Below, piece by piece: positions 11,972 to 26,558 of a DNA stretch of 64,000 nt (its first letter is position 1; each line of letters begins with the position of its first letter). The notes under the pieces were generated by a model. The model searched no databases, had not been told where the DNA came from, and was given only the letters and a program-made list of their open reading frames with translations. Source of the stretch: a virus (lineage: Duplodnaviria > Caudoviricetes); the IMG/VR virus record IMGVR_UViG_3300021400_001698, positions 1-64,000 of that record; one strand, given 5' to 3'. Position numbers and translations under genes: made by a program.

Positions 11972-12307
11972 TTAAGCTCTTGTGTAGCCCTTGCACTTAC
12001 CCTTAGGACCCTTTACGTCCTGAGATACTGCAGCTCCCTGGCTTACTGCGGTTCTTGCGAGTGCGGAAGCCTTCTGAGGAGAAACCTCAAGTGCAGCTGC
12101 AATGTCAGTTGCGGTAAGCGGCTCATCGGTCAGCATCTCTACGAGCTTCTCTACGAGAGGTGCATTCTCCTGTGCTTTCTTGGAGACCTTCTCACGTCTT
12201 GCGGCGTTAGCTGCGTCCATCTTCTCGATGAGTTCCTGAGCCTTAGCGATAACTTCTTCGTTGATTGTTCCTGCTACGATTGTCTGATAAAATTCTCTCT
12301 GTGTCAT
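11972..12307 (-). CDS. winged-helix DNA-binding protein, paralogue 1
   Basis: MTQREFY start after AGAAGGA; LTATDIAAALEVSPQKASAL HTH; similar to 14782 and 18677 genes. Confidence 0.75.
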   Translation of the reverse strand: MTQREFYQTIVAGTINEEVIAKAQELIEKMDAANAARREKVSKKAQENAPLVEKLVEMLTDEPLTATDIAAALEVSPQKASALARTAVSQGAAVSQDVKGPKGKCKGYTRA

Positions 12308-12537
12308 TTTTAAATCCTTCTTTCTTGCGTAGGCCGCAACCCAGTTACGTTTGTGAATTTTTAATTTTATGAGAGAGGTTTCTTCTCTCACTTTCTATAT
12401 ATATTATAGCAGAATTTTCAGAACTTTTCAAATTTTCAGTTCTTATTTCCGCTCCGAAGATTCGAATAGATTATTTGTTTTCTTCTCTCATCTTCTATAA
12501 ATAGTATATCAAAAATTTGAAGCTTTTTCAAATTTTC

Positions 12538-12699
12538 GCAGCTCCTATAATTTTATATAAAGAAAATTTGACTTTAAAAATCAAATTTTGACGCAGCTCT
12601 CACGGGAAATAATAAAAAAATTTGACAAAAAAAGTCAAATTTCCATAGCAGCTCTATGTGCAGCTCCCAGCTCCGACGCAGCTCCTATAGGCGCAGCTC
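12538..12699. repeat. clustered GCAGCTC repeats
   Basis: GCAGCTC at 12538, 12593, 12648, 12660, 12678, 12693 and CAGCTC at 12668. Confidence 0.75.
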
Positions 12700-12910
12700 C
12701 TGGACGCGGCCACATACACATACGACACCTACGATGGCTACGGCGCTGCACCTGTGCATATTGTATACTGTATATTGTATACACAAATGGAAATTTGACT
12801 TTGTTAAAAATTTGACGAGGGCCGGCCAGTTTATACCCGGGGATCGGCCGGCCCGTGGTTTACATAATATATATATTGTAAACCCGTTGGTTGACATAAA
12901 AAAAGAGAGG

Positions 12911-13273
12911 TTAACCCTCTCTCTTCGCGGATATTTCCGCTTTGCGCTTGCGCACTTCCGCATCGCGCGCCACCTTTTTGGCTTTGCGTTCCGCGTTCTC
13001 GCGCGCCTTTTCCGCTTTGGCTTTGCACGACATCTCGTAGTCCTCCGCCATCGCGTACCCATCATATGGGGTCATACCCTTGTCCGCACCTGTGGGGACT
13101 TTAAAGGTGATAACGAGGAAGTCCTCGTTGCCCTCGCACCCTACTACAGGTAGTGCGATTTCGTTGGATTTCACGCGCAACACCTCATTATCTTGTGCGG
13201 TGAGGAATGCGGAAACGGATTCGAGGAACTGCGCGCGGATAAGTTCGCGCTCGGATTTTCTTGATACTGCCAT
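12911..13273 (-). CDS. hypothetical protein with basic C-terminal helix, paralogue of 17417-17773
   Basis: Shared VLRVKSNEIA.PVVGCEGNEDF.VIT.KVPTGADKGMTPYDGYAMAE. Confidence 0.85.
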   Translation of the reverse strand: MAVSRKSERELIRAQFLESVSAFLTAQDNEVLRVKSNEIALPVVGCEGNEDFLVITFKVPTGADKGMTPYDGYAMAEDYEMSCKAKAEKARENAERKAKKVARDAEVRKRKAEISAKREG

Positions 13274-13618
13274 ATGGAGTACCCCCTTTCTTTTATTTTC
13301 TATAGTAATTATAGCAAAATTTTACGGATTTGTCAAGGGAATTTGAAAAGTATTTTGTATACATTGGCTTTGCAATATAATAATTATGTAAACCTAATAG
13401 ATTGTAAATCGCAATTAGACGATGTGGTGGGCCGGCCCGGGACGATCTGCGGCCCGGCATCAACTATTCCGCATAAATTAATTTTAGGAATAGTTGCGGC
13501 CGAGATAAACCCATTGGATACGCAAGTTTAAACTAACTATTCCTATAAAACTAATTTTCGGAATAGTTGCACCGGATCGACCGGCCGTGAACATATGTTT
13601 GCATAAAAAAAAGACGAC

Positions 13619-13882
13619 TTAATCGTCGTCCTCTTCTTCATCATCACAATCATAAATTTTAAAGTCATTAACCTTAAGGTCATACCAATTAGTTTCAAAA
13701 GTTATTCCTACTTTTTCCCATTTTTCAATAAAGGCGTTGAGTTCTTCTACTGCTTGTTTTTTGAGTTCATATCTACGTCTTTTAAATTCTTCTTCAATAT
13801 CTTTCTGAATTTGCCGAAGGTCTTCTTCTGCAATTTCATTAAGGTTACAAGTTGACAGTTCATCAAATAATTCGTATGCCAT
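13619..13882 (-). CDS. hypothetical acidic protein
   Basis: Start moved to MAYEL after AAGGAG. Confidence 0.75.
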   Translation of the reverse strand: MAYELFDELSTCNLNEIAEEDLRQIQKDIEEEFKRRRYELKKQAVEELNAFIEKWEKVGITFETNWYDLKVNDFKIYDCDDEEEDDD

Positions 13883-13896
13883 TTTTATCTCCTTTC

Positions 13897-14094
13897 TTAA
13901 ATTATACTCCAAACGATTTCCTCAACTTCTGAAATTTCTTTTTTTGTATATTCATTATCATTGATTTCAACCGTTTCTATTTCTTCATTAAGCATTGCGG
14001 TATCAATTTCATCTATTAACTTATGAAATTTTCTAATGATTTCTTTTTCTTCGCTTGTAAATTCAACTCTCATTTGCTTGGTTATAATAGTCAT
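13897..14094 (-). CDS. hypothetical protein
   Basis: AAGGAG RBS. Confidence 0.75.
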   Translation of the reverse strand: MTIITKQMRVEFTSEEKEIIRKFHKLIDEIDTAMLNEEIETVEINDNEYTKKEISEVEEIVWSII

Positions 14095-14111
14095 TTTTTT
14101 ATCTCCTTTCT

Positions 14112-14342
14112 TTACTCTATTATATCACTTGGTTCTTCTATTGTCAAGAGATATTTTTGAAAATCTTCTATTTCATCTGTTTCAATAAGATGTTCAACAT
14201 ATACACGAGTCAATCCCTCATCAGTATAAACATTAACTTGTCCACCGCCCCACTCATATTTATCTTGCATATATTTTATAAAGGCATAACCATCTGTTTC
14301 TTTAGTTGAAAAAGTATATTTATCTGTTTTTATCATTAACAT
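14112..14342 (-). CDS. hypothetical protein
   Basis: AAGGAG RBS, own sigmaA promoter. Confidence 0.75.
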   Translation of the reverse strand: MLMIKTDKYTFSTKETDGYAFIKYMQDKYEWGGGQVNVYTDEGLTRVYVEHLIETDEIEDFQKYLLTIEEPSDIIE

Positions 14343-14396
14343 TTTTTTATCTCCTTTCTTATTACACTAATAGTATAACATATAATGCTTTAAAAG

Positions 14397-14573
14397 TCAA
14401 GAGGAATAATCAATTTTTATTCCAAATTCTTCCATTACTTGAGCAATTATCCAAATTAAATCATTTGGGGTTTCAATTATAAGTTTATTATTTTCTATTG
14501 TAAATTTTTCTTGCCACGCATTCATTACTTGAAAAGTGGTATGAGTTAAATCGTCAGTATATTTAATTGTCAT
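14397..14573 (-). CDS. hypothetical protein (58 aa, MTIKYTDDLT...)
   Basis: AAGGAG RBS and own promoter; below the ORF-track cutoff. Confidence 0.7.
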   Translation of the reverse strand: MTIKYTDDLTHTTFQVMNAWQEKFTIENNKLIIETPNDLIWIIAQVMEEFGIKIDYSS

Positions 14574-14781
14574 TTTTATCTCCTTTCTTATTACATTTAT
14601 ATTATATATTATAGGAACGAATTTGTCAACCCCTAAATTAAAAAATTTTTAACTGTTAAAAAATTCACAAGTGCGCCGGCCCGTAATTTTACTCGTCCGG
14701 CCGCGAACATACGTTCTTTGTTTGTTAATTAACAAACAAAGTAAAAGGAAAGAAAAGGACACCTTGCGGTGTCCCTATCTC

Positions 14782-15099
14782 TTAAAGGGAGTATGCGTTC
14801 TGCTCACCCTTACCCTTTACCTTTACCTTTGTAACCTTTACGCCCTCGATTCTCTTTACAAGACCGCTTACCTTCTGTGTTGAGAATCCCGTTGCGGTTG
14901 CAATCTCACTTGCAAGCATCGGAGTTTCGGTGAGTACATTTGCGATTGCGACTCTCTCGTCTGCGTGCTTGTCAACTCTCTGTTCTGCTCTCTTTGAGTT
15001 GCGTGCGTCAAGTTTCTCGATTGATTCTGTTGCGTGTGCGATAACTTCTGCGTTGATTTCTCCGTTGATAACTGCGTTGAAAAATTCTCTCTGTGTCAT
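14782..15099 (-). CDS. winged-helix DNA-binding protein, paralogue 2
   Basis: MTQREFF start; MLASEIATATGFSTQKVSGL HTH. Confidence 0.75.
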   Translation of the reverse strand: MTQREFFNAVINGEINAEVIAHATESIEKLDARNSKRAEQRVDKHADERVAIANVLTETPMLASEIATATGFSTQKVSGLVKRIEGVKVTKVKVKGKGEQNAYSL

Positions 15100-15240
15100 T
15101 TTAGACTCTCTTTCTCCCATCACTTCGGTAGTGGGCAACCAAGTTTCAATTGAGTTTGGGAGTTACTTTTCTCTCCCTTTTGTACTTTTATTATATCACC
15201 TTTTAAAAGGTTTGTCAAGAGGGTTTTAAAACTTTTTTAA

Positions 15241-15334
15241 AAGTTTTTAGTGGGACTACGTTTCATATCTACTGACCACTATTTCGATATAAAAGGTGAG
15301 GCAAGTTAACGTCTGATGCTCGACCCCTCTTGAC
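15241..15334 (-). ncRNA. promoter-driven small RNA candidate A
   Basis: TTGACA(15364-69)-17-TACAAT(15341-46); about 95 nt without RBS/ORF before the next promoter. Confidence 0.5.
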
Positions 15335-15384
15335 AATTATATTGTATCACCTTTTGGTGAATTTGTCAAGAGGTTTTCTAAAAA

Positions 15385-15468
15385 ATTTTTAGAAGTGAGA
15401 TTCGAACTCATATAATGCCGTTCAGTCAAGTCTTGCTTGCTTACTACACATCGCCATTCCCTCTTGAC
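15385..15468 (-). ncRNA. promoter-driven small RNA candidate B with T-arm
   Basis: TTGACA(15498-503)-17-TACAAT(15475-80); contains TGAG-TTCGAAT-CTCA. Confidence 0.55.
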
Positions 15469-15522
15469 AATTATATTGTATCACATTTCTGTGGTACTGT
15501 CAAGTACTTTTTTAAAAAGTTT

Positions 15523-15609
15523 AGAGAGAATTTGGATTTGAACCATCGGTGGCCACTTTATTGACTCGAACAATCGCCCTACCTTTTAGGGATTCTCTCT
15601 TCACTTTCT
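15523..15609 (-). ncRNA. promoter-driven small RNA candidate C, double-T-arm tRNA mimic
   Basis: TTGACT(15639-44)-17-TATAAT; 9-bp closing stem AGAGAGAAT/ATTCTCTCT enclosing CCCTA/TAGGG hairpin, ATTG-TTCGAGT-CAAT and TGG-TTCAAAT-CCA. Confidence 0.65.
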
Positions 15610-15734
15610 ATATATATTATAATCGAATTTTATAAAAAAGTCAAGATTTATTTTTCAAGTATATTGTATACATTACTTTTATACTTTACTACGCGAAAGC
15701 GCGGCCGGCCAAAGTGAACCGATTTCGGTTCACC

Positions 15735-16115
15735 TTACCAACCGAAGAACTTGGAAAATTCTTCATCGAGAAGTGGAGCAAGTCCAAACATAAACTTTTT
15801 TTGTCCATTCTCTGCAGTGTAACTGACAAGAAACTTCTTGTAGACACACCAATTTATTTCTTGCTCATACTCTGCCCCAAAGTGTTCTTTAAGTTCTGCG
15901 AGGGTGAAACTGTTGCCATAGGTGGGACAATAGTTTGCCCAATCGAGAATTTGATAACACTTGAAATGTGAGGGAGAAAGAGTCTTTTTTGCTACCCACA
16001 TTTTAAGTCTGCGCTCAAGTGGGTCTGTTAGTGTATACCAAAGTTGACAAAAGAAGTTGCGGATTGATTCGATTGTTGATTCGAAAAAAAATTCAAGATT
16101 GTCTATTACTGTCAT
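15735..16115 (-). CDS. hypothetical protein
   Basis: AAGGAG RBS, own promoter. Confidence 0.75.
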   Translation of the reverse strand: MTVIDNLEFFFESTIESIRNFFCQLWYTLTDPLERRLKMWVAKKTLSPSHFKCYQILDWANYCPTYGNSFTLAELKEHFGAEYEQEINWCVYKKFLVSYTAENGQKKFMFGLAPLLDEEFSKFFGW

Positions 16116-16255
16116 TGTATTATCTCCTTTCTTATTACACTATTAGTATACACCATTAAAATGAATTTGTCAACCCCAAATTAAAAAAAATTTTTACTTT
16201 AATACTTTAATTCATTGGAGTGCGGCCGGGCGAGATTGTGAAGTTAATCACAATC

Positions 16256-16456
16256 TCAACCATTCGTATCCCACCATTCTTCAAAATCAGGGTTCAATTC
16301 AACTTCTTCAATATCAAATTCATCATTCTGTAAATATTCTTCGCTGACTTCAAAAAGTTGAATACTTACTTTATTAGCAAACTCTATTGCCTTTTTTCGA
16401 GTGTCAAATAATGCTACACCGCCACCTAAATATTCTCTAAATAAATAATACTTCAT
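16256..16456 (-). CDS. hypothetical protein
   Basis: AAGGAG RBS, own promoter and terminator. Confidence 0.75.
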   Translation of the reverse strand: MKYYLFREYLGGGVALFDTRKKAIEFANKVSIQLFEVSEEYLQNDEFDIEEVELNPDFEEWWDTNG

Positions 16457-16598
16457 TTTTTATCTCCTTTCGTTTTCTGTATCTAAAGTATATCATATTA
16501 TAACCTATTTGTCAACCCCTAATTTAAAAGTTAAATAATTAACAATTACGCCCGGCCGCGCATAAATATACATCGCAATGTATAAACAAAGATGTGTC

Positions 16599-17243
16599 TT
16601 ACCACATCTTTGTTTCAAAGTTAGCACCACCTAACTCCCTACACTTCATTAAAATTTTGTATTCAATTTCACAATCTGCAAGTGCCGTGTGTTCCTCTGT
16701 GAAATTTTTATCAAAGAAATACTGTGCGACAATTTCTGCGGTGTATCTGTTTGCGTTTCTCTGTGTGAGATAGTTATTTACTTCACAAAATTTTCTGTAT
16801 TCACTTTCACACTTTAAAGTGTAACGAGAGAGAGCAAGTATATCGTGAAATTCTGTACCATAGGGGAAGAAATATCTATATTTAGATTTCGTTAAATATC
16901 TTTCGGTTGTTGCGGTTGAGATATAATCAAATCTGCAATTATATGCAAAAACTTTTGTTATCTCATTTTCTTTCATTATATGGCGAAGAGTCCATTTTAT
17001 ATTTTTAAAACTTGTAAGTGTCCTTTCGCCTTTCTTTATCTGTTCCCAATAGGTGGGAATTTTTTCTTTAAAATATGCGCTTTCCATTAACTCTTTATTA
17101 CAGAATACGTCTGCATTTACAAAAGAATGTTTTGAGTAAATATTGCCCTCAAAATCTGCAACGATAAAACCTATATCGTAACAAATAGGGTCATCAAGTG
17201 AATTTGTGGTTTCGGTATCTAATACTATAATTTTTTCTGTCAT
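16599..17243 (-). CDS. DEDDh 3'-5' exonuclease (DnaQ-like)
   Basis: LDTETT ExoI, YNCRFD ExoII, HTALAD ExoIII motifs. Confidence 0.88.
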   Translation of the reverse strand: MTEKIIVLDTETTNSLDDPICYDIGFIVADFEGNIYSKHSFVNADVFCNKELMESAYFKEKIPTYWEQIKKGERTLTSFKNIKWTLRHIMKENEITKVFAYNCRFDYISTATTERYLTKSKYRYFFPYGTEFHDILALSRYTLKCESEYRKFCEVNNYLTQRNANRYTAEIVAQYFFDKNFTEEHTALADCEIEYKILMKCRELGGANFETKMW

Positions 17244-17416
17244 CGTGTTTTGTCCTTTCGTTTTTCTGTAATTATATTATATCACATATATAGGAAAAGT
17301 CAAGCAAAATTTCGAAAAAATTTTTATACAATTTTAGGAATAATTATACGACGCGCCGGCCTTGTTTGTTAATTAACTAACAATTTTCCGAAATAAAAAA
17401 GTGAGTCATTTCTGAC

Positions 17417-17773
17417 TCACTCTCCCTTTTCTGCAATTTCCTTTTTCTTTCTGCGAATTTCCTCATCACGCTTGATTTTTTTTGCTTTCTTTTCGGCACT
17501 TGCCTTTGCCTTTTCTTCTTTCTCTTTCAGTTTCATTTCATATTCTTCTGCCATCGCATAACCATCGTAAGGAGTCATACCCTTATCTGCACCCGTTGGC
17601 ACCTTTACAGTAATTACGATAAAATCTTCGTTACCTTCACAACCCACAACGGGAAATGCAATCTCATTTGATTTGACCCTTAAAACTTCTTCAGTTTCGG
17701 CAAGTGTTTCGATTAACTTTGTTAAATAATTTTCTTTCAGTAATTCTCTTTCAACTTTTCTTGATACTCCCAT
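17417..17773 (-). CDS. hypothetical protein, paralogue of 12911-13273
   Basis: Long identical peptide stretches. Confidence 0.85.
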   Translation of the reverse strand: MGVSRKVERELLKENYLTKLIETLAETEEVLRVKSNEIAFPVVGCEGNEDFIVITVKVPTGADKGMTPYDGYAMAEEYEMKLKEKEEKAKASAEKKAKKIKRDEEIRRKKKEIAEKGE

Positions 17774-17995
17774 TCTGTGTATCTCCTTTCTTTATCTTAT
17801 ACCTTATTATAACATTTCAATCAATTTTTGTCAAGAGAAAATTCAAAACTTTTTTGGATTTTTAAATTTTCTTTTTTCATTTTCTATATATATTATAACA
17901 AAAATTTTAAAATTTGTCAAGTTTTAATTTGTAAGAATACTGTATACATTTCTTTAATTGTTTAACACTTTAATTCGCTAAAGTGCGCCCGGCCG

Positions 17996-18009
17996 CGAAC
18001 ATATGTTCG
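17996..18009. promoter_or_regulatory. Gram-positive SOS (LexA) box; one of nine copies at 13.6-25.0 kb
   Basis: CGAACATATGTTCG matches CGAAC-N4-GTTCG. Confidence 0.75.
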
Positions 18010-18039
18010 TATAAAAAAAGTTGTGAAATAAATCACAAC

Positions 18040-18210
18040 TTAATCTCCTATTATTTCGGGACTTAAATCCACCCAATCATTATAAATTTCAAGAATTTCA
18101 ACCTCATCTTTATCAAAAGTGCCACCACAACACCCACATATAATAGTATTATCGTCAGTCAGAATACCACCAAAAACTGCTTCAACATCTCTAAACTTAA
18201 TCTGCTTCAT
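18040..18210 (-). CDS. small zinc-binding protein (ICGCCGG)
   Basis: Start MKQIKF after AAGGAG. Confidence 0.7.
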   Translation of the reverse strand: MKQIKFRDVEAVFGGILTDDNTIICGCCGGTFDKDEVEILEIYNDWVDLSPEIIGD

Positions 18211-18226
18211 TTTTAAATCTCCTTTC

Positions 18227-18484
18227 TTATGAGTGAATGCCACCCAAAACCTTAATTAAAATTAAACCTGTTGTAATTCCTAACATACAGAAATCCTTTA
18301 CCTTATCTGCCATTGGTCTTTTTAATACAAAACATCTTACAACTGCAAGTACATTTGCACTAAAGTATATAAACTGTCCTACAAAAAAGTTACTACCAAC
18401 TGTACATTGTGCAGTAATTAACAAAGTCAAAACTAAATAGTTCGCAAGTTCAAAACCCTTTTCTATCTTTTCTCTAACTGTCAT
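18227..18484 (-). CDS. small membrane protein (3 TM)
   Basis: Hydrophobic segments; GAGGT RBS; own promoter. Confidence 0.75.
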   Translation of the reverse strand: MTVREKIEKGFELANYLVLTLLITAQCTVGSNFFVGQFIYFSANVLAVVRCFVLKRPMADKVKDFCMLGITTGLILIKVLGGIHS

Positions 18485-18676
18485 TCACTTTACCTCTCTT
18501 TCTTATCTCTTTGTACCTTAATTATACTCTATAAATCCTATCTTGTCAACCCCTTTTTTAAAAAAATATTTTAACTTTTACAATTTAGTGTGCGAAAGTG
18601 TGCCGGCCGCGGTCGTTTGTTAATTAACAAACAAAGTACCCTAAAAAGAAAAGGGTACTTGCGTACCCTTTATGCC

Positions 18677-19018
18677 CTATGCGAGAGTATATGCAACCCT
18701 CTTGCCAACCTTAGGCAACTTCACTTCGGAAGCCACTACCTTTCCTTCCTTTGCTAACTGTCCACAAAGGGAAGATGCCTTTGCGGTAGTGATACCAACC
18801 GCTTCACCTATCTCCTTTGCGATGTGAGTTTCTCCGTTGGCGAGGAACTCGAGGATAGAAGCCTTAATAGGCTCGTTGGCGAGTGCTACCTTTGAGGGTC
18901 TTGAAGCCCTATTAGCATTACGAGTGTCGAGCTTTGTGATTTCTTCCGTAGCCTTTGCTACTACCTCTTCGGTGATTTCTCCATTAACGATTGCGGTGTA
19001 GAATTCTCTGTAAGTCAT
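18677..19018 (-). CDS. winged-helix DNA-binding protein, paralogue 3
   Basis: MTYREFY; IAKEIGEAVGITTAKASSL HTH. Confidence 0.78.
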   Translation of the reverse strand: MTYREFYTAIVNGEITEEVVAKATEEITKLDTRNANRASRPSKVALANEPIKASILEFLANGETHIAKEIGEAVGITTAKASSLCGQLAKEGKVVASEVKLPKVGKRVAYTLA

Positions 19019-19399
19019 TTTAAGTTCCTTTCTTGCGTAGGTCGCAACCCTCTTTTACTTTTGGGAGTTTCTGTCTCCCTCTCTCATCTTACATTTAGAT
19101 TATAGCATATTTTTTTAGGTTTGTCAAGAGTTTTTTTAAACTTTTTTTAATTTTTTTCGTCTTTGGAAGTGGTCATTTCCATCTGCCAAAACCGAATTTT
19201 TATTTTCTTGACCTTTTGTAATTATATTATATATGAATTTTATTAATTTGTCAACTACTTTTTTCAATGTATATTGTATACATTACTTCAATGCTTTAAC
19301 GTGTGAAAGCGCGGGCCGGCCGAAGCGAACATATGTTCTTTTTAATCTAATAAAAAAATTGGCTTCTGTTCCCAAGTGCCAATTAACTCGGAGTCTTGC

Positions 19400-19618
19400 T
19401 CACCAGTGAGGGCGAACTCCCCAATAATCCTTGTGGAGGTCAGAGTAAATCTGCCAGTCCATAGGGTCATCGGTTTCCTCTGCAATCTTCAGAGCCTTCT
19501 GAAGGTTTTCCCAACATCTACGCTCTTCAGCGATTTCTTCGAAATCTGCGAGGATTCTGTTGCCAGTCTTTTCAGAGAGCCAACATTCGCACCCTGCGAT
19601 TATGTACTTGTAAAGCAC
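19400..19618 (-). CDS. hypothetical protein (GTG start)
   Basis: GGAGG RBS before GTG 19618; the ORF-track N-terminus overlaps the promoter. Confidence 0.65.
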   Translation of the reverse strand: MLYKYIIAGCECWLSEKTGNRILADFEEIAEERRCWENLQKALKIAEETDDPMDWQIYSDLHKDYWGVRPHW

Positions 19619-19835
19619 TAGGTAAGTCCTCCTTTCCTTGTTCTTTTGTACTTTTATTATAGCACCCTTTAGGTAGTTTGTCAACCCATTTTAAAAAATT
19701 TTTTTAACTTTTTTCTTTAACGCTTTAACGTACTAAAGTGCGGCCGGCTTACTTTAATACTTTAATTCGTTAAAGTCTACCCGGCCGCGATTGTTAAGTT
19801 ATTAACTTAACAAATTGAGTTCAATAAAAAAGGGA

Positions 19836-20282
19836 TTAATTTAATCCCTTTAATATCTCGATGATATTGTCAACATCATATGCAGTACCTATCCAATTTT
19901 CTCTGTTTGCGATTTCGTCATCGAATAAAATTCCATTCGGGAAATTTACCACCATTTCCTTCGGTGTGCCATATTCGGTGATGATAATTTCGTCAAACTT
20001 TACACTTGCAAGGTGAACGGTTAACCATTCCATTTTTGCATTTATAACCTTTGCGTTGTATTCGGTTGTACCATTCTTTGCTAACCACGATACAATGCCG
20101 ATTATATAACCATTTGCCTGAAGTCTGTTGAGAAGTCTTGCAAGTACATTTAACTTTACAAGAGGGGTTGCGTCTGTGTAAGGGCTTGCGTCCTCGTTCT
20201 GTAACTTTGTTAACCAATTATTTACACCGTAGAGGTTGGCGAGTGTGCCGTCCATATCGAAATATATTGCCTTGTTCATCAT
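19836..20282 (-). CDS. HAD-family phosphatase, 5'(3')-deoxyribonucleotidase-like, paralogue 1
   Basis: YFDMDGT motif I, LFDD motif IV. Confidence 0.82.
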   Translation of the reverse strand: MMNKAIYFDMDGTLANLYGVNNWLTKLQNEDASPYTDATPLVKLNVLARLLNRLQANGYIIGIVSWLAKNGTTEYNAKVINAKMEWLTVHLASVKFDEIIITEYGTPKEMVVNFPNGILFDDEIANRENWIGTAYDVDNIIEILKGLN

Positions 20283-20442
20283 TTTATTTACCTCTCTTTC
20301 TCTATATATAATATAGCATACTTTAAGAAATTTGTCAACCCCTGGGAAAAATTTTTTTCTATTGTATATCGGTATTAGACGATTTGGGTGGCCGGCCGCG
20401 AACATATGTTCATATAAAAAAATGTGCATAATCGCACATTTT

Positions 20443-20991
20443 TTACCAATCCTTTAAACATTCTTTTACGTGTTTGTCAAGTAAATATTCTGTGTAAAAT
20501 CTGTTTACTTGTGGTTCTGTAGTAATGGTTGCGTTCCAAAACTTAACTTGAATATGTTCCCCATTTACTACCACATCTCCGCACTCTGTACACTTTGCGG
20601 ACTTGTTTTCGTTCTGTGTTCCGTTGGTGTACTGTGCAAACATATCTTCGAAAAGGTTTCCACGGTTTCCCTTGTATCCATTTTCTCTCTGTTCTGTATA
20701 GAGTCTTTCAAACTCTTTTACTGAACACATCGGAATTATTTCCCTTGCGTATTCCTTAAGGATTGCAAATACTTCCATTTTGTTGTTCATTCTTACTCCC
20801 CAAACTGAACCGTGGCTTGCAGAATTTCTTTCGCAATAGGTTACAAGAGGAAGAACCTCATCGGCATTTTCTACGATAACGGCCTTGACCATTTTCTCGT
20901 CACGGATTGCAAATGCATATGTATTGGTATATTCAACTTTTGCCAGTCTTTCAAGAATTGTCATTTTTATTTCTTCGTTTGAGTTTCTCAT
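20443..20991 (-). CDS. PD-(D/E)XK-like protein, paralogue of 24144-24623
   Basis: NRGNLFE...GDVVVNGEHIQVKFWNATITTE. Confidence 0.6.
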   Translation of the reverse strand: MRNSNEEIKMTILERLAKVEYTNTYAFAIRDEKMVKAVIVENADEVLPLVTYCERNSASHGSVWGVRMNNKMEVFAILKEYAREIIPMCSVKEFERLYTEQRENGYKGNRGNLFEDMFAQYTNGTQNENKSAKCTECGDVVVNGEHIQVKFWNATITTEPQVNRFYTEYLLDKHVKECLKDW

Positions 20992-21259
20992 TTTTGTGTT
21001 CCTTTCTTTTTCTTTCCCTTCTGTGATTATATAATAACATATAACTGGCAAAATGTCAACCCCTAAATGAAAAAAGTTTAAAAAATTTTTTGGCACACTT
21101 CTTGCAAGGGGTGGCGGCCGGCCGAAACTTTAACGCTTTAGTGCGCGAAAGCGTCGATTGCACCCTCGGTGTTTGCGTCCTTGGTGTCCACTCCACTTCC
21201 CTTTCTCTATATATATAATAACATAGAAAAAGGACTTTGTCAAGTCCTTTTTTAAAAAT

Positions 21260-21475
21260 TTAGTGATGTAAAATTACTTCATATGAACACGTATTCGGTT
21301 CATTCAAATATACTTCTTCGAAACAACAAGGACAAAAGCACCCACGACTAATAAATTTACCATATGTTTTAAACATTTCTTCTTCTTCTGCGATAAAAAC
21401 ACATTCACACTTTTTACACATAATTCTATAAGAAGTTTTGACACTTAAATCTCTACCCATTGTAATTATCTTCAT
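21260..21475 (-). CDS. small zinc-ribbon protein
   Basis: CKKC...CPCC; AAGGAG RBS. Confidence 0.75.
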   Translation of the reverse strand: MKIITMGRDLSVKTSYRIMCKKCECVFIAEEEEMFKTYGKFISRGCFCPCCFEEVYLNEPNTCSYEVILHH

Positions 21476-21493
21476 TTTTTTTATCTCCTTTCT

Positions 21494-21655
21494 TTATGTA
21501 AATATCATTATTATTACTGATAATATTATGTAACAAATACTTATTATTATTCGTATAATGTAAGATATATTGATTTCTTGATATATACTTAATGTTACAT
21601 ACCACCAAGACAATATTGCTATACCTAAAATTGCCATTATTGATAAAATTATCAT
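21494..21655 (-). CDS. small membrane protein (53 aa)
   Basis: Start MIILS after GAGGT; the longer ORF-track version runs through promoter and repeats. Confidence 0.65.
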   Translation of the reverse strand: MIILSIMAILGIAILSWWYVTLSIYQEINISYIIRIIISICYIILSVIIMIFT

Positions 21656-21881
21656 TTTATTTACCTCTCTTTCTTTATCTATAATATACCATATATGAAG
21701 AGGAAAGTCAACCCCTAAATTAAAATTTTTTCGTACAAGTGCGCGCGGTCGTCCGTGTCCGTGCAATGACTCTGTTAAATCCTTAACAAGGACGGCCGGC
21801 CGCGAACATATGTTCGTTTTGTAATTAGAAAAAAGGCACAAGCAAGACTTGTGCCAATTTTCAAAGAAAAGGAGGTAAACA

Positions 21882-22031
21882 CTATAAAAACAATTTAAAG
21901 AGATTCCAATTTGATAAAACCGTTTCACTTTCAAAGTCTAAATTCTGTGAAGTGATTTCAATATAGGAAACTATGCCCCAAAGAATAAGTAATACCGATA
22001 TAACTATTATAATATTTCTAAAAATCTTCAT
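21882..22031 (-). CDS. small membrane protein (49 aa, MKIFRNIII...)
   Basis: AAAGGA RBS; hydrophobic N-terminal helix. Confidence 0.6.
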   Translation of the reverse strand: MKIFRNIIIVISVLLILWGIVSYIEITSQNLDFESETVLSNWNLFKLFL

Positions 22032-22063
22032 TTTCTTAATTCCTTTCTTTATCTCTTCTGTGA

Positions 22064-22255
22064 TTATATAATACCATACTTTTTAAAGTCTGTCAAGTCT
22101 TTTTCAAACTTTTGTTCAACTTTTTTTCTATTATATAACCGATTTCCTTCACAATAAGGACAAGACCCGTGATTTCTGCAAGTGTAATCAATTGCCTTTG
22201 ACCCGTAAAATGGTTTTCTATGTTCTTTTCCATTCTTAATCGCTTTATCTAACAT
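22064..22255 (-). CDS. small Cys/His phage protein (CRNHGSCPYC)
   Basis: Start MLDKAI after AAGGAG; own promoter. Confidence 0.72.
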   Translation of the reverse strand: MLDKAIKNGKEHRKPFYGSKAIDYTCRNHGSCPYCEGNRLYNRKKVEQKFEKDLTDFKKYGII

Positions 22256-22383
22256 TTTTCTTATCTCCTTTTCTATATATATTATACTATAACCAAAACG
22301 GGAAGTCAAGTGTTAATTTTTTAACAAGGGGTCGGCCGGCTGTGAATTTTTATACATTTCTATGTATATTTAAAAGGCACTTC

Positions 22384-22824
22384 TTAAAGTGCCTTTAAAA
22401 CTGTAAGGATTTCGGTTTCGTCAAAAGCCTTGCCTATCCAATTTTCTCTATTCTGAATTTCATCATCGAATAAAATTCCGTTTGGGAAGTTCACAACTTC
22501 TTCTTTTGGTGTTCCGTAAGGAACGATATTTATTTCATCGAATTTCACGCTTGCAAGGTGGGAATTTAACCAATTTGTCTTTGCCTTTGCAACTTCTATA
22601 TCATAATTTTCGGAAGAATTTTTTGCTAACCAACTAACAATGCCGATGACCCAACCCTTTTTCTGTAAATTATTGAGAAGTCTTGCAAGTACATTCAGTT
22701 TAAGGAGAGGAAGTGCCTCGATGTATAAACTTGCATCTTCATTTATAATTTTTTCTAACCAATTTTCAACTCCATAAAGGTTTGCGATTGTTCCGTCCAT
22801 ATCGAAGTAAATTGCCTTTGTCAT
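22384..22824 (-). CDS. HAD-family phosphatase, 5'(3')-deoxyribonucleotidase-like, paralogue 2
   Basis: YFDMDGT and LFDD; highly similar to 19836-20282. Confidence 0.82.
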   Translation of the reverse strand: MTKAIYFDMDGTIANLYGVENWLEKIINEDASLYIEALPLLKLNVLARLLNNLQKKGWVIGIVSWLAKNSSENYDIEVAKAKTNWLNSHLASVKFDEINIVPYGTPKEEVVNFPNGILFDDEIQNRENWIGKAFDETEILTVLKAL

Positions 22825-23117
22825 TTTATTTTCTCCTTTTCTCTTTTTCTATAATTATTATATACTTATTTTGAAAATTTGTCAATGGTTTTAGGAAAAT
22901 TTTTTATACAATTTTTTGAATAAAAATTGAAGAGGAAAACTTTTACGAAATAAACTTCAGAACTTTAATGTGTGAAAGCGCGGGCCGGCCAAAATTTTAA
23001 GACTTTAATTTACTAAACTTTAGAACTTTAACGCGTGAAATTACGGCCGGCCGCACCTATAAGTTTGTTAATTAACAAACAAGTTGATCGAGTCAAAAGA
23101 AAAACACCTTTCGGTGT

Positions 23118-23402
23118 TTAATCTTCTTTATGGAAGTAATCGCGTGTAATCCTTTCGAAAACTTCATCTGCGGTCATCCAACCCTTGACGTCATCGACCT
23201 CTTTTTCTTCTTCTGTAAGAAGTCCCTTTATCTCAAGGAGTCCGTCCTGATGTCCGTATGATACGTCATTGCAAATGACTGAACAAATGCAATTGTCGTG
23301 ATTGGGATATTCAAGATGTAAACCGCCAAGATGTTCTGTCATCTCGTAAGGAACGAGAACGCAAGCAAGCATGTATCCGAGTTTATTCATTTCTGTAAAC
23401 AT
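23118..23402 (-). CDS. hypothetical protein
   Basis: GAGGT RBS; SYGHQDGLLEI motif. Confidence 0.75.
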   Translation of the reverse strand: MFTEMNKLGYMLACVLVPYEMTEHLGGLHLEYPNHDNCICSVICNDVSYGHQDGLLEIKGLLTEEEKEVDDVKGWMTADEVFERITRDYFHKED

Positions 23403-23470
23403 TGTGTGTACCTCTCTTTCATTTACTATAGTAATTATACTCCTATATAATTACTTTGTCAATACCCTTT

Positions 23471-23641
23471 TTATTCTTCTTCTTCTCCATATCCAACACC
23501 GAGAAGTATATCATACATCATCTGCTTTAACTCTCTATCCGTCATCGTCATATCCTCTGCGTAACGACCGATTAAAAGAGTATATCTGTCCTCAAACCCT
23601 CTTACATATGCAACCTTTAAAACCATATCTGTTCTTGTCAT
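23471..23641 (-). CDS. hypothetical protein (56 aa)
   Basis: GGAGG RBS, own promoter. Confidence 0.7.
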   Translation of the reverse strand: MTRTDMVLKVAYVRGFEDRYTLLIGRYAEDMTMTDRELKQMMYDILLGVGYGEEEE

Positions 23642-23862
23642 TTCTGTGTTCCTCCTTTGTCTTTATCTATATAAAGTATAACGCATATTACTCAATTTGT
23701 CAAGTAGGAAATTAAAAGTTAAATTATTAACAATCGCGGTCGGCCGAATATATTGACTTTAGTATATTAAAGTTTAGAACTTCAACGCATTAAAGCATGG
23801 CCGGCCGCGACGTGTGGAACATATGTTCGTTTTGCTTATAAAAGAAAAGGACTCTTTGAGTC

Positions 23863-24042
23863 CTATATAAGTTTTTCTTCTTTTATTCTTTTATCTCCAA
23901 GGCTTGTTATTTCCTCGACTGTTAATCCCGCCGCATAACAACGACACATCCAATCAGACATCTTTATTTCTTCATCTCTACCAAGAGTCCAATCAATATA
24001 CATTTCAATAATTTCTTCTTTGATATTTTTAAGGGCTGTCAT
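23863..24042 (-). CDS. hypothetical protein (59 aa)
   Basis: GAGGT RBS, own promoter and terminator. Confidence 0.7.
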   Translation of the reverse strand: MTALKNIKEEIIEMYIDWTLGRDEEIKMSDWMCRCYAAGLTVEEITSLGDKRIKEEKLI

Positions 24043-24143
24043 TTTCTTTACCTCTTTTCTTTTCTTATCTTAGCTTCTATCTTATTATAACATATAGCTC
24101 GTAGCTTGTCAACTACTTTCTTAACCCTACCGAGGGAAGAGGC

Positions 24144-24623
24144 TTACGCCTCTCCCATCAGCTTGTACATCTGACTCTCGGTCATGTATGTGGCTCCTTC
24201 AAACTTGAGCTGATAGCCGATACCGTCAACCTCAAGGTCGGGGCCTTCCCAGAACGGCAGATTATCCTTTTCCCAGGTCTGACCGTTTAACTCTGTTACG
24301 AACTTCTCGAATACTTCACCACGATTATAAATACAAGTGGCTACTGTTTCATCAAAGAACTCAACGGAGCAGATAGCCTGTGAATCTTTTAACAGGCTCA
24401 TCTTTTGTGCTACGGTCGGCTTAAATCTCAGGCTGTAGCCCTTGCCACGGCTGGCTTTATCTAACTTCATAAACTGAGCTATATCGTCCGAGCCGATAAC
24501 GACAGCATACACAACGCCTTTGAATGTAAAGCCTAAAATGTAGTTGTGGCAGGCATTTCTTGTTTGATAAATCTTTGACATTGTCTTAAGTAAATCTGCG
24601 TTCATAGTGTACCTCACTTTCAT
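24144..24623 (-). CDS. PD-(D/E)XK-like protein, paralogue of 20443-20991
   Basis: NRGEVFE...PDLEVDGIGYQLKFEGATYMTE. Confidence 0.6.
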   Translation of the reverse strand: MKVRYTMNADLLKTMSKIYQTRNACHNYILGFTFKGVVYAVVIGSDDIAQFMKLDKASRGKGYSLRFKPTVAQKMSLLKDSQAICSVEFFDETVATCIYNRGEVFEKFVTELNGQTWEKDNLPFWEGPDLEVDGIGYQLKFEGATYMTESQMYKLMGEA

Positions 24624-25115
24624 ACTGTAAAGTATTAAATCCTTTTCAAATTCTACCTAATTATAACGCTTTTAAAGGTATATGTCAATAGAAATCAGCA
24701 AAGTTTTTTTATTCAGTTTTATGTATATTTATACAGTCATATATATATTGTATTTATATACATACAATGTATATTTTATTGTTAGCACTCAAACATATGT
24801 TCGTTTTTATTATACTGTATATTGTATACACGATTTTATTATACTAAAGTTTTAATGCGTTAAACTTTAGAACTTCACCGTACTAAAGTGAGACGGCCTG
24901 TCCCAAGAGGGTATATCCCCGGGTGGGTTACGCGAGGTAGATTGTGAAATTTTTAACTTATCACTTATCGAATGACACTCCTTTTTTTCGAAAAAATCTC
25001 GAACATATGTTCGTAGAACATACATTTACTTGTATGGGCCGGGGATGTTTATGGGTTAACGCGTTAATACTTTAACGTGTGAAAGTATCCTCTGGAAAAT
25101 AATCTCCATGAAATC

Positions 25116-25164
25116 AAAAATCAAAACCTAAAACCCAAAAACTAAAATTCAAAACCCAAAATTT
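25116..25164 (+). repeat. seven tandem 7-bp A-tract repeats abutting a promoter
   Basis: AAAAATC AAAACCT AAAACCC AAAAACT AAAATTC AAAACCC AAAATTT. Confidence 0.75.
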
Positions 25165-25191
25165 GACAAACTCCCAAACCCATGATATAAT
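25163..25191 (+). promoter_or_regulatory. sigmaA promoter with extended -10
   Basis: TTGACA-17-TATAAT with TG at -15/-14. Confidence 0.88.
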
Positions 25192-25244
25192 ATAAGTAGA
25201 GTAAAAAATTAGAGGAGGACCAACACTTACGTTGGCTTATATAA

Positions 25245-26558
25245 ATGCAAAATAGACTTAAATTAGATTTTAGTTTGGAAACTGCAGAAGAGCGTAAAAA
25301 CTTCCTCTCAACCTATCTCGTCCAATTTGACAATTTAACCCAAACCGAACTTGCGACTCTTGCAGACTATCTCCTTTGGGGTAAAGACGAAAGCGGCGAA
25401 GCCATAGGTAAAGGAACAGGTTTAAGAACTCGTTGGACCAAGGACGACGAATTCGAATCACTTGACTCTCTTCTTGAAAATCCAAACTTCAACGACCTAC
25501 AAATTCACACATTAAGTGAGACGGTCCCACTTAAACGTCCTAAAGCGACTTTTTCTCGGTCAGCCGCACTTAAAAACTGTCCTGAAGACCTTCGTAAAAC
25601 CTTCGAAGAACTTTGGCATCAAATTGACTCAACCGACTTACTCATTACCTACTATGAGTTATTAAACGGAAAAAGAACTCTCGCTCCAAGACAAGAACTT
25701 ATCGACCGTTTCACATTAGACGAAAGAAACAATTTACTTGCGGCGGCTCAAAAACTTACTCAATTTACCTATCTCAAAAAAAGACACGAATTAATTGATT
25801 TACGACGTCAGCAATTTACGCTAAAAGACTCATACAATGCGCCAATTAACACATTAAACCATTTACCACAACCGCAACTTATCAATACAATAACTTTTGA
25901 CGTTGACATTCCCGTTTATCCGCTTGGTTTGCGCGAAGGTCAACTCGCACAATTAATTTTTGACAAAAATCTTGACCCCGCGCACCTCAACGACGAACAA
26001 CTCAACCAACTTAACACCTTCTTAATTGAGAAACGAAAACCTAAACCTGCTCGAAACTTCGATTTCCGCGAACTTGAACCCGTTTATCAGTTATTCCTTT
26101 TTCATGAAGACCTAACCGATCGAATTGAGGAAGCCAAGGAAGCCCATTTAGTTGAATCAAACCTCGATAAGCTTATAGACACGCTAAACTTTTATATCGA
26201 CCTTACCGACCTAACCGAGGTTCAACAAGTTATCTTACAAAAGAAAATTAACCACGAAAAAAATTCTGATATAGCGGGGTATGTAAATAGGACCTACGGT
26301 AAGTCCTATACGGCAAACTATATAAGTACAATTTTTAGACAAAAAATTATACCGAAAATTAACGAGTCGGCAAAGTTCCACTTAGAAACCGTAAGCAACT
26401 ATTTCTTCCCTGAGAATTTTAAGAAATGTAGTGAATGCGGGCGGATTTTACTTCTCCATGAGAATAATTGGGTTAGAAAGGCAAGAAGCAAAGATGGATT
26501 TCAAAGTCGATGCAAGAGATGTGAGAAGAAGATAAGGGAGGAGAAGAAAAAGAAATGA
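25245..26558 (+). CDS. putative transcription regulator (sigma70 region-4-like HTH plus C-terminal Zn finger)
   Basis: LTEVQQVIL...KNSDIA...YISTIF HTH-like segment; CSEC...CKRC. Confidence 0.55.
   Translation: MQNRLKLDFSLETAEERKNFLSTYLVQFDNLTQTELATLADYLLWGKDESGEAIGKGTGLRTRWTKDDEFESLDSLLENPNFNDLQIHTLSETVPLKRPKATFSRSAALKNCPEDLRKTFEELWHQIDSTDLLITYYELLNGKRTLAPRQELIDRFTLDERNNLLAAAQKLTQFTYLKKRHELIDLRRQQFTLKDSYNAPINTLNHLPQPQLINTITFDVDIPVYPLGLREGQLAQLIFDKNLDPAHLNDEQLNQLNTFLIEKRKPKPARNFDFRELEPVYQLFLFHEDLTDRIEEAKEAHLVESNLDKLIDTLNFYIDLTDLTEVQQVILQKKINHEKNSDIAGYVNRTYGKSYTANYISTIFRQKIIPKINESAKFHLETVSNYFFPENFKKCSECGRILLLHENNWVRKARSKDGFQSRCKRCEKKIREEKKKK

Follow-up and report, generated by a model that had tools for sequence, protein, structure and literature searches.

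Related early-gene systems

Mobile regulatory cassettes of early genes have been described in T4-type phages under the name promoter-early stem-loop (PeSL) cassettes (Arbiol et al., 2010, PMC2839356; Comeau et al., 2014, PMC4122927). In phage SPO1, about 12 kb are occupied by a host-takeover module, with some 26 small early genes whose promoters and ribosome-binding sites are exceptionally strong (Stewart et al., 1998; summarised in PMC6873191). A locus comparable to both was analysed here in the first 64,000 nucleotides (the window) of the IMG/VR virus record IMGVR_UViG_3300021400_001698 (Duplodnaviria; Caudoviricetes). Positions 11972-24690 appear to form an immediate-early gene block of 12.7 kb, transcribed from the minus strand, in a large uncultured phage of gut or rumen Bacillota, and to be of the type represented by the SPO1 host-takeover module. 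This block is very probably a cassette array whose units are shuffled by way of the spacers between them.

The likeness to PeSL cassettes is one of layout and of behaviour. In both, the intergenic motif leads from a stop codon through a stem-loop terminator and an A/T tract to a consensus sigma-70-type early promoter, a Shine-Dalgarno (SD) sequence and a start codon, and such motifs cluster where orphan open reading frames (ORFs) make up a hyperplastic region. In addition, where close relatives differ by an insertion, deletion or replacement, the motifs mark its limits, and a single chimeric motif remains after the loss of a unit. However, PeSLs belong to T4-like myoviruses, whereas the window comes from an unrelated phage lineage and host type, its terminase being nearest to those of the large Bacillota phages Geobacillus virus E3 and the SPbeta-like phages (28-40% identity). 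The array is also a single dense one rather than several hyperplastic regions, its terminator lies well upstream of the promoter and not inside it, and it carries extra, ordered operator-like palindromes whose type switches between relatives. Judged from its sequence, the array is a mechanistic analogue of PeSL and not a member by descent.

With the SPO1 module, the array shares a cluster of predicted small early genes, promoters and ribosome-binding sites that look strong, and a setting that points to a large phage of a Bacillota host. It differs in that its ORFs lack detected homology to known families, and the SPO1 description includes neither comparative shuffling nor operator content. Compared with the terminal redundancy of SPO1, the array is internal in the assembled relatives, which are possibly permuted assemblies. 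An earlier note, written by a model from the letters of this DNA, had likened the region to SPO1 and PeSL with richer operator content, and this comparison holds.

Architecture of the cassette array

The array is defined by its promoters. A scan for TTGACA-17-TATAAT sites returned 14 perfect (12/12) sites and 27 matching in at least 11 of 12 positions on the minus strand, versus none and one, respectively, on the plus strand; first-order Markov simulations with the same 17-nt spacer gave a mean of 0.115 and a maximum of 2. Overlap with a terminator or a palindrome casts doubt on three of the listed promoters (21243, 17372 and 12638). The array comprises 26 ORFs of 49-214 aa and about five ORF-less promoter units. 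A promoter of its own, followed 30-45 nt downstream by a strong SD, precedes 23 of the 26 ORFs, while g09, g15 and g24 have none and are predicted to be co-transcribed. The earlier note's count of about 28 minus-strand promoters is borne out, as is its picture of about 30 short units. Furthermore, 26 terminator-like hairpins are predicted (8.4 expected), standing at the head of most spacers, and an A/T-rich tract upstream of the promoters is seen in the repeated intergenic motif.

The ORF-less promoters are of two sorts: those at 19254 and 17920 stand in tandem with the next promoter, and those at 15644, 15503 and 15369 head RNA units. In this second group (15241-15644), three tandem consensus promoters each precede a predicted ORF-less transcript of about 90 nt, and two of these RNAs end in tRNA T-arm-like sequences (GGTTCAAATCC and GAGTTCGAATCTC). 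ARAGORN made no call and Rfam gave no match for these units, and a scan of the entire array against Rfam returned nothing credible. Units resembling them were seen in one relative, L013.

Between the units, the spacers follow a common order of terminator, palindrome, GC core, CTTTA-N6-TAAAG, TGTATACA, A/T tract and promoter (-35). This order is kept in 50 of 55 motif pairs (five are non-canonical) and the motifs are restricted to 12.8-25.1 kb of the window, in agreement with the ordered, shared intergenic module that had been proposed. Repeat families of 34-95 nt, in 4-10 copies with 60-88% identity, span a promoter-leader-SD block (60-95 nt, 5-10 copies, 60-80% identity) and an operator block (34-40 nt, likewise recurrent). 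The identical block that had been reported between distant units, near 15180 and 19645, corresponds to a 19-mer found exactly twice, at 15177-15195 and 19643-19661. These regulatory spacers are the only sequence common to the units.

A typical unit would be read as a sigma-A promoter close to consensus and preceded by an A/T-rich tract, then a short leader and a consensus SD, one small ORF (sometimes two, sometimes RNA only) and usually an intrinsic terminator. Because the units carry their own promoter and SD and usually their own terminator, host RNA polymerase could express each of them independently on entry.

Shuffling of units among relatives

Relatives were gathered through an anchor gene that lies next to the array (Table 1), whose protein has more than 1,000 homologues among metagenomic proteins. 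This yielded 10 metagenome loci and 80 viral contigs, from which 54 arrays were retained for comparison, all with 6 kb or more of sequence upstream of the anchor; the closest relatives show 97%, 88% and 81% anchor identity. No anchor relatives were found among genome contigs (genome_contigs), and a megablast search with the array found no match among 50,697 phage records. The organisation is shared throughout the set, with 4-27 strong promoters on the array strand and 0-2 on the opposite strand, except in L019, which has six. Genomes of this lineage measure 125-140 kb, and in four complete relatives (126-140 kb) promoters and palindromes are restricted to one 10-15-kb array.

Gene content turns over rapidly within this shared frame. 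The 875 ORFs of the 54 arrays fall into 315 families, 219 of them present in a single locus only, and just four families are near-universal (winged-helix-like, g16-like, NT5C-like and g17-like). Even these core families are arranged differently from one lineage to another, and close relatives are mostly collinear with unit-sized gains, losses and replacements. Two unrelated families, F05 and F08, swap between two slots across the window, L005 and L011. L011 is itself a mosaic, with 69% nucleotide identity in the anchor gene and array blocks 91-92% identical to the window.

The position of the breakpoints carries the argument further. Comparison of the window with six relatives gave homology blocks (≥80% identity, ≥150 nt) with 38 internal ends, of which 33 lie outside gene interiors, that is, in a spacer or at most 15 nt from a gene end, versus 45% expected (binomial p=1.4e-7). 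Only five fall more than 15 nt inside a gene, where 54.5% would be expected. Twelve ends lie between the -35 element and the ATG and 21 in the stop, terminator and operator part, and one breakpoint, at 16457, is shared by two independent relatives. Two junctions in L005 can be read directly. Where g19 is missing, the remaining spacer is a chimera of the window spacers up- and downstream of g19, with the crossover in the shared GC-core/TAAAG segment; where g08 is missing, its promoter is joined to g09 within the shared SD block. Only 6 of the 54 arrays are rich in the GC core, so it is not required for shuffling and is a lineage-specific extra.

According to the earlier note, a fixed gene order and breakpoints that avoid the modules would speak against a recombination-shuffled array of self-contained units. 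The variable order, the 33 of 38 block ends outside gene interiors and the two chimeric junctions instead support it. The comparative signature of recombination at the spacers is present, and from it we infer recombination itself. Homologous recombination between dispersed spacer repeats, inside one genome as well as between co-infecting relatives, would delete, insert, replace, duplicate and re-order whole units while leaving genes unbroken. Such shuffling would need no dedicated recombinase and would be the same mechanism as that proposed for PeSL cassettes.

Operator-like motifs in the spacers

Several spacer motifs resemble operators of bacterial regulators. The LexA/Cheo box occurs at nine sites (0.46 expected), and when consensus match and the GAAC-N4-GTTC core were examined, seven exact 12-mers and three perfect 14-bp palindromes were found. 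These three palindromes (17996-18009, 21803-21816 and 25000-25013) have what we take to be the ideal form of the Bacillota LexA box, as given in the Bacillus subtilis literature. The LexA-type sites lie 50-130 nt upstream of the next -35 element. A second motif, CTTTA-N6-TAAAG, corresponds to the published operator consensus of HisR, a regulator of the TrpR family, which in Firmicutes is the 20-bp palindrome cacTTTA-N6-TAAAgtg (PMC9413887). The related pattern CTTT-N7-TAAAG has 20 matches (2.5 expected); besides the exact consensus listed in Table 1, several further spacers match with one or two mismatches, and at three or fewer mismatches there are 32 matches (6.2 expected), 23 of them within 15.6-25.1 kb. 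For the third motif, the Rex-like sites of the earlier note, the pattern is enriched, at one mismatch (seven matches, 0.27 expected) and in its clostridial-type TTGTTAA form (15 matches, 2.0 expected), but the spacers contain no exact match to the Rex-type consensus, and two of the seven are terminator stems.

The remaining motifs are of other kinds. GGCCGG, the GC core, has 34 of its 37 window matches inside the array region (4.8 expected for the whole window). The hexamer CGGCCG is present in 47 copies in the 64 kb (34% G+C), genes included, and in 6-7 copies per 13 kb in relatives without the GGCCGG core. In addition, TTGTTAATTAACAA has three exact copies and one near copy, and an 18-bp TTAATTAA-centred palindrome has three exact copies. 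No known operator could be assigned to TGTATACA or to the GC core, and no printed NrdR consensus was found for comparison.

Comparison of the arrays shows that the slot directly after the terminator is variable, being occupied by one of five mutually exclusive palindrome types over 42 of the 54 arrays: the LexA box (24 arrays), TTAGACG-N5-CGTCTAA (13), a TTAGATG variant (2, with up to 20 copies), TTCGTACGT-N3-ACGTACGAA (2) and GTTAGTT-N2-AACTAAC (1); in the other 12 no type was recognised. No array mixes types, each genome having one type in 5-20 copies. At one orthologous spacer in six phages, the terminator and the HisR-like, TGTATACA and promoter flanks are kept, and the LexA box with its GC core is exactly replaced by the TTAGACG palindrome, TTAGACGT-N3-ACGTCTAA. 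The types designated B, B' and C share a common design of an 8-9-bp arm and a 3-bp spacer.

Type B was also considered as a host operator and rejected, its exact bacterial copies being single sites, in Arthrobacter (upstream of a transporter) and in bacteria of the candidate phyla radiation (CPR). Multi-copy type B matches lie on phage-like contigs binned with metagenome-assembled genomes (MAGs) of Clostridia or Eubacteriales, and no bacterial regulon for the TTAGACG palindrome was recognised in bacterial genomes. Eight genome_contigs entries (L124, L133, L161, L167, L170, L179, L184 and L192), with 3-11 copies each of the TTAGACGT-N3-ACGTCTAA palindrome, were assigned to MAGs from the ruminant gut that bear the labels Clostridia, Eubacteriales or Acutalibacteraceae. 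The contigs are probably phage DNA placed in the wrong bin, and they hint at the host range.

Possible docking of host repressors

Precedents exist for host-derived and for phage-derived control of such sites. In the lytic phages phi29 and Nf, boxes for the host global regulator Spo0A lie around the early promoters, and host state therefore controls the lytic programme (PMC2731898). The array differs from phi29 in having up to three putative host-type operators, in 5-20 copies each and outside the promoter cores. The stoperators of Cluster A mycobacteriophages, which are asymmetric and genome-wide (PMC6550527), and the SPBRE/MrpR system of SPbeta (PMC10516654) belong to temperate phages with an identified phage repressor. 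The array resembles them in its many copies of one short intergenic operator per phage and its lineage-specific consensus. Unlike them, it has palindromic sites that stay within the array, one of the types is identical to the host LexA box, and neither an integrase (five complete relatives) nor a cognate repressor (arrays and five genomes) was found.

It is tentatively proposed that host repressors dock at the spacer palindromes, which lie downstream of the terminator and 25-130 nt ahead of the following -35 element, and that early expression would thereby be tuned to host regulators or sequester them; the chances of this fall just short of even. Docking is rated likelier for the window because three distinct submotifs match three host consensuses (LexA, HisR and Rex). 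A more specific form of the proposal, possible although rather doubtful, is that LexA, HisR and Rex docks between all immediate-early units let a virulent phage sense, or titrate away, host signals on stress, amino acids and redox state, and that relatives re-tool the array by slot-for-slot operator swap, in concert over 10-20 spacers.

Alternative explanations

Part of the picture could arise in an ordinary early operon region, with repeats that are convergent consensus signals only and differences among relatives that stem from illegitimate recombination filtered by selection. Consensus signals alone yield 60-80% identity over short stretches, and selection for intact genes pushes surviving junctions into intergenic DNA. 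This account is nevertheless improbable, in view of the chimeric spacers with a crossover inside shared segments, the recurrent breakpoint at 16457 and the fixed order of motifs that are not expression signals (GC core, HisR-like site and TGTATACA). Active excision and insertion of cassettes by an integron-like system, in which a site-specific recombinase or nuclease recognises the palindromes or the GC core, is very improbable and was rejected, since neither tyrosine (PF00589) nor serine (PF00239) recombinases were found in the five complete relatives, with control genomes positive. It would fit the palindromic marks at cassette boundaries, the several block ends at the edge of a LexA box or GC core (20411 and 23828) and the first-slot family H04 (g01/g10), which has invariant residues E100, D123, Q132 and K134 (E, D, Q-x-K) and is found in none of the 15 TTAGACG-type arrays, against 30 of the remaining 39. 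However, the 12 breakpoints of the promoter-to-ATG block lie away from the palindromes, the tightly packed g21-g24 have neither operator spacers nor palindromes, and relatives without the GC core shuffle equally well. The AlphaFold2 (AF2) model of g01 is confident (pLDDT 93.4), but the best structural hits in the PDB (Foldseek, E=0.12; VIA-align, Z=2.9) match it to neither a nuclease nor any other fold. This lends no support to a nuclease role, and the idea that H04 is a PD-(D/E)xK nuclease acting on the GC core was dropped, despite the invariant residues.

A different question is whose regulator the palindromes would serve. They could be operators of a phage-encoded regulator with a shut-off or insulator function, like the Cluster A stoperator repressor or MrpR/SPBRE, specific to each lineage, with a likeness to LexA that is convergent or coincidental. 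The restriction to a single, mutually exclusive type per genome, the exact exchange of LexA box and GC core between conserved flanks, the common arm and spacer design of types B, B' and C, reminiscent of allelic operators, the confinement of the sites to the array and the precedents in temperate phages all suit this explanation. Yet no array-encoded family or subfamily tracks palindrome type one-to-one in the arrays and five genomes, associations being confounded by lineage, and no LexA-like gene or protein was found in the five complete relatives. The lack of tyrosine and serine recombinases in these genomes makes the group look virulent, as it probably is, so a lysogeny repressor is unlikely. 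Moreover, three submotifs that match three host operator consensuses are hard to ascribe to chance. A phage-encoded regulator is therefore considered unlikely, without being far-fetched.

Some points also weigh against spacer-mediated shuffling with docked host repressors. Breakpoints at gene boundaries are partly expected from selection for intact genes after any recombination, the ends of BLAST blocks are imprecise and the 38 ends are not independent, and the homologies at the junctions are sometimes short (about 10-35 nt). The early timing of the array is read from promoter sequence. Classical repression would not be expected of operator sites that, like these, lie outside the promoter cores, and the LexA, HisR and Rex motifs are published Bacillota consensuses that may not be those of the actual host. 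To our knowledge, the four other palindrome types of the relatives match no host operator.

Coding content and neighbouring features

Searches of the array ORFs against Pfam and PHROGs left nearly all of them as orphans. The exceptions are weak: g05/g11 are HAD/NT5C nucleotidase-like, g13/g20/g26 are winged-helix-like, and g17 matches phrog_20187 with a DnaQ-like N-terminus. Four paralogue families scattered through the array, as previously noted, were confirmed as g01/g10, g05/g11, g13/g20/g26 and g16/g25. An anti-host or anti-defence role of these ORFs would be a reasonable analogy with the SPO1 host-takeover module. Some relatives (L070-L075, L078 and L079) encode a small AbrB/SpoVT-like DNA-binding protein (family H17) in their arrays.

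The leaders of g13, g20 and g26 are long (about 80-100 nt, at 18960-19100, 15100-15190 and 12310-12400 on the minus strand); all three contain a GAGAG...CTCCC hairpin and, ahead of the SD, a conserved GGTTGC box. Upstream of the g26 promoters, a G+C-richer non-coding spacer of 480 nt contains six to seven GAGCTGC or GGAGCTG repeats at 12540-12700 (minus strand); GGAGCTG has eight matches in the window (3.0 expected), five of them in this segment.

Strand skew reverses at both ends of the array, at about 12 kb and about 25 kb. The anchor gene has a divergent, perfect plus-strand promoter of the early type at 25163-25191, and its protein is a candidate middle/late transcription factor. Elsewhere, the window encodes a tRNA cluster, terminase, portal, anaerobic ribonucleotide reductase and RecJ. 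The coordinates of all features are collected in Table 1.

Table 1. Coordinates of the array, its units, selected spacer motifs and the adjoining region in the window (promoters by position, with matching consensus positions in brackets).
Feature	Position	Strand	Remarks
Whole cassette array	11972-24690	-	26 ORFs and about 5 ORF-less promoter units
g01	24144-24688	-	Promoter 24688-24660 (12/12); 153-aa ORF 24605-24144; family H04, paralogue of g10
g02	23863-24112	-	Promoter 24112 (12/12); 59-aa ORF; other ORF instead in L005
g03	23471-23703	-	Promoter 23703 (11/12); 56-aa ORF
g04	23118-23462	-	Promoter 23462 (12/12); 94-aa ORF
g05	22384-22885	-	Promoter 22885 (12/12); 146 aa; HAD/NT5C-like (below threshold); paralogue of g11; near-universal family H02
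g06	22064-22309	-	Promoter 22309 (11/12); 63-aa Cys-rich ORF
g07	21882-22096	-	Promoter 22096 (11/12), within g06 3' end; 49-aa hydrophobic ORF
g08+g09	21260-21711	-	Promoter 21711 (10/12); 53-aa and 71-aa ORFs; g08 missing in L005
g10	20443-21059	-	Promoter 21059 (11/12); 182-aa ORF; unrelated family F08 instead in L005
g11	19836-20338	-	Promoter 20338 (11/12); 148-aa NT5C-like ORF
g12	19400-19684	-	Promoter 19684 (12/12); 72-aa ORF; replaced in L005
g13	18677-19254	-	Tandem promoters 19254 and 19127 (both 12/12); long leader; 113-aa winged-helix-like ORF; near-universal family H00
g14+g15	18040-18549	-	Promoter 18549 (12/12); 85-aa and 56-aa ORFs
g16	17417-17920	-	Tandem promoters 17920 and 17834 (both 12/12); 118-aa ORF; family H01; paralogue of g25
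g17	16599-17303	-	Promoter 17303 (11/12); 214 aa; phrog_20187 match, DnaQ-like exonuclease N-terminus; family H03
g18	16256-16515	-	Promoter 16515 (11/12); 66 aa; replaced in L005, breaks at start codon (16457) and stop codon
g19	15735-16173	-	Promoter 16173 (11/12); 126 aa; missing in L005, one chimeric spacer left
Three ORF-less units	15241-15644	-	Promoters 15644, 15503 and 15369
g20	14782-15218	-	Promoter 15218 (12/12); long leader; 105-aa winged-helix-like ORF
g21-g24	13619-14629	-	Promoters 14629 (12/12), 14400 (10/12) and 14147 (12/12); 58, 76, 65 and 87 aa
g25	12911-13336	-	Promoter 13336 (12/12); 120-aa ORF; paralogue of g16
g26	11972-12431	-	Promoter 12431 (11/12); long leader; 111-aa winged-helix-like ORF; terminator 11942-11915 downstream
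LexA/Cheo-box-like site	13589-13600		1 mismatch; adjoins CGGCCG
LexA/Cheo box	14705-14716		Adjoins GC core; TTGTTAATTAACAA palindrome at 14722-14735
HisR operator consensus	17966-17985		Exact match, cacTTTA-N6-TAAAgtg
Perfect 14-bp LexA consensus palindrome	17996-18009		Fused to GC core (17989-17996)
18-bp palindrome GTTTGTTAATTAACAAAC	18615-18632		Repeat family D12; copies also at 14720 and 23063, imperfect at 17366
LexA/Cheo box	19327-19338		Followed by GC core and HisR-like site
Two HisR-like sites	19721-19777		1 and 2 mismatches; each adjoins a GC core
LexA/Cheo box	20400-20411		Fused to GC core; L005 homology block end at 20411
Perfect 14-bp LexA consensus palindrome	21803-21816		Fused to GC core
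LexA/Cheo box	23817-23828		L009 homology block end at 23828
Divergent control region	24689-25244		LexA-type boxes 24791 and 25001, HisR-like and TGTATACA motifs, plus-strand promoter of the anchor gene
Anchor gene	25245-26558	+	437 aa; sigma-factor-like C-terminal part (phrog_5767, E=4e-14); C-terminal CxxC...CxxC tail

Implications

PeSL-type shuffling has so far been described only in T4-like phages, and with the array considered here it would be a general route of early-gene turnover in large phages of Gram-positive-type gut bacteria. The 54 arrays, with their 315 families, are also a rich source of orphan early genes, which are natural candidates for host-takeover and counter-defence screens. 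Furthermore, the look-alikes of host operators in the spacers and the concerted exchange of palindromes are not explained by the PeSL model, and they point to a possible additional layer of regulatory coupling between host and phage.

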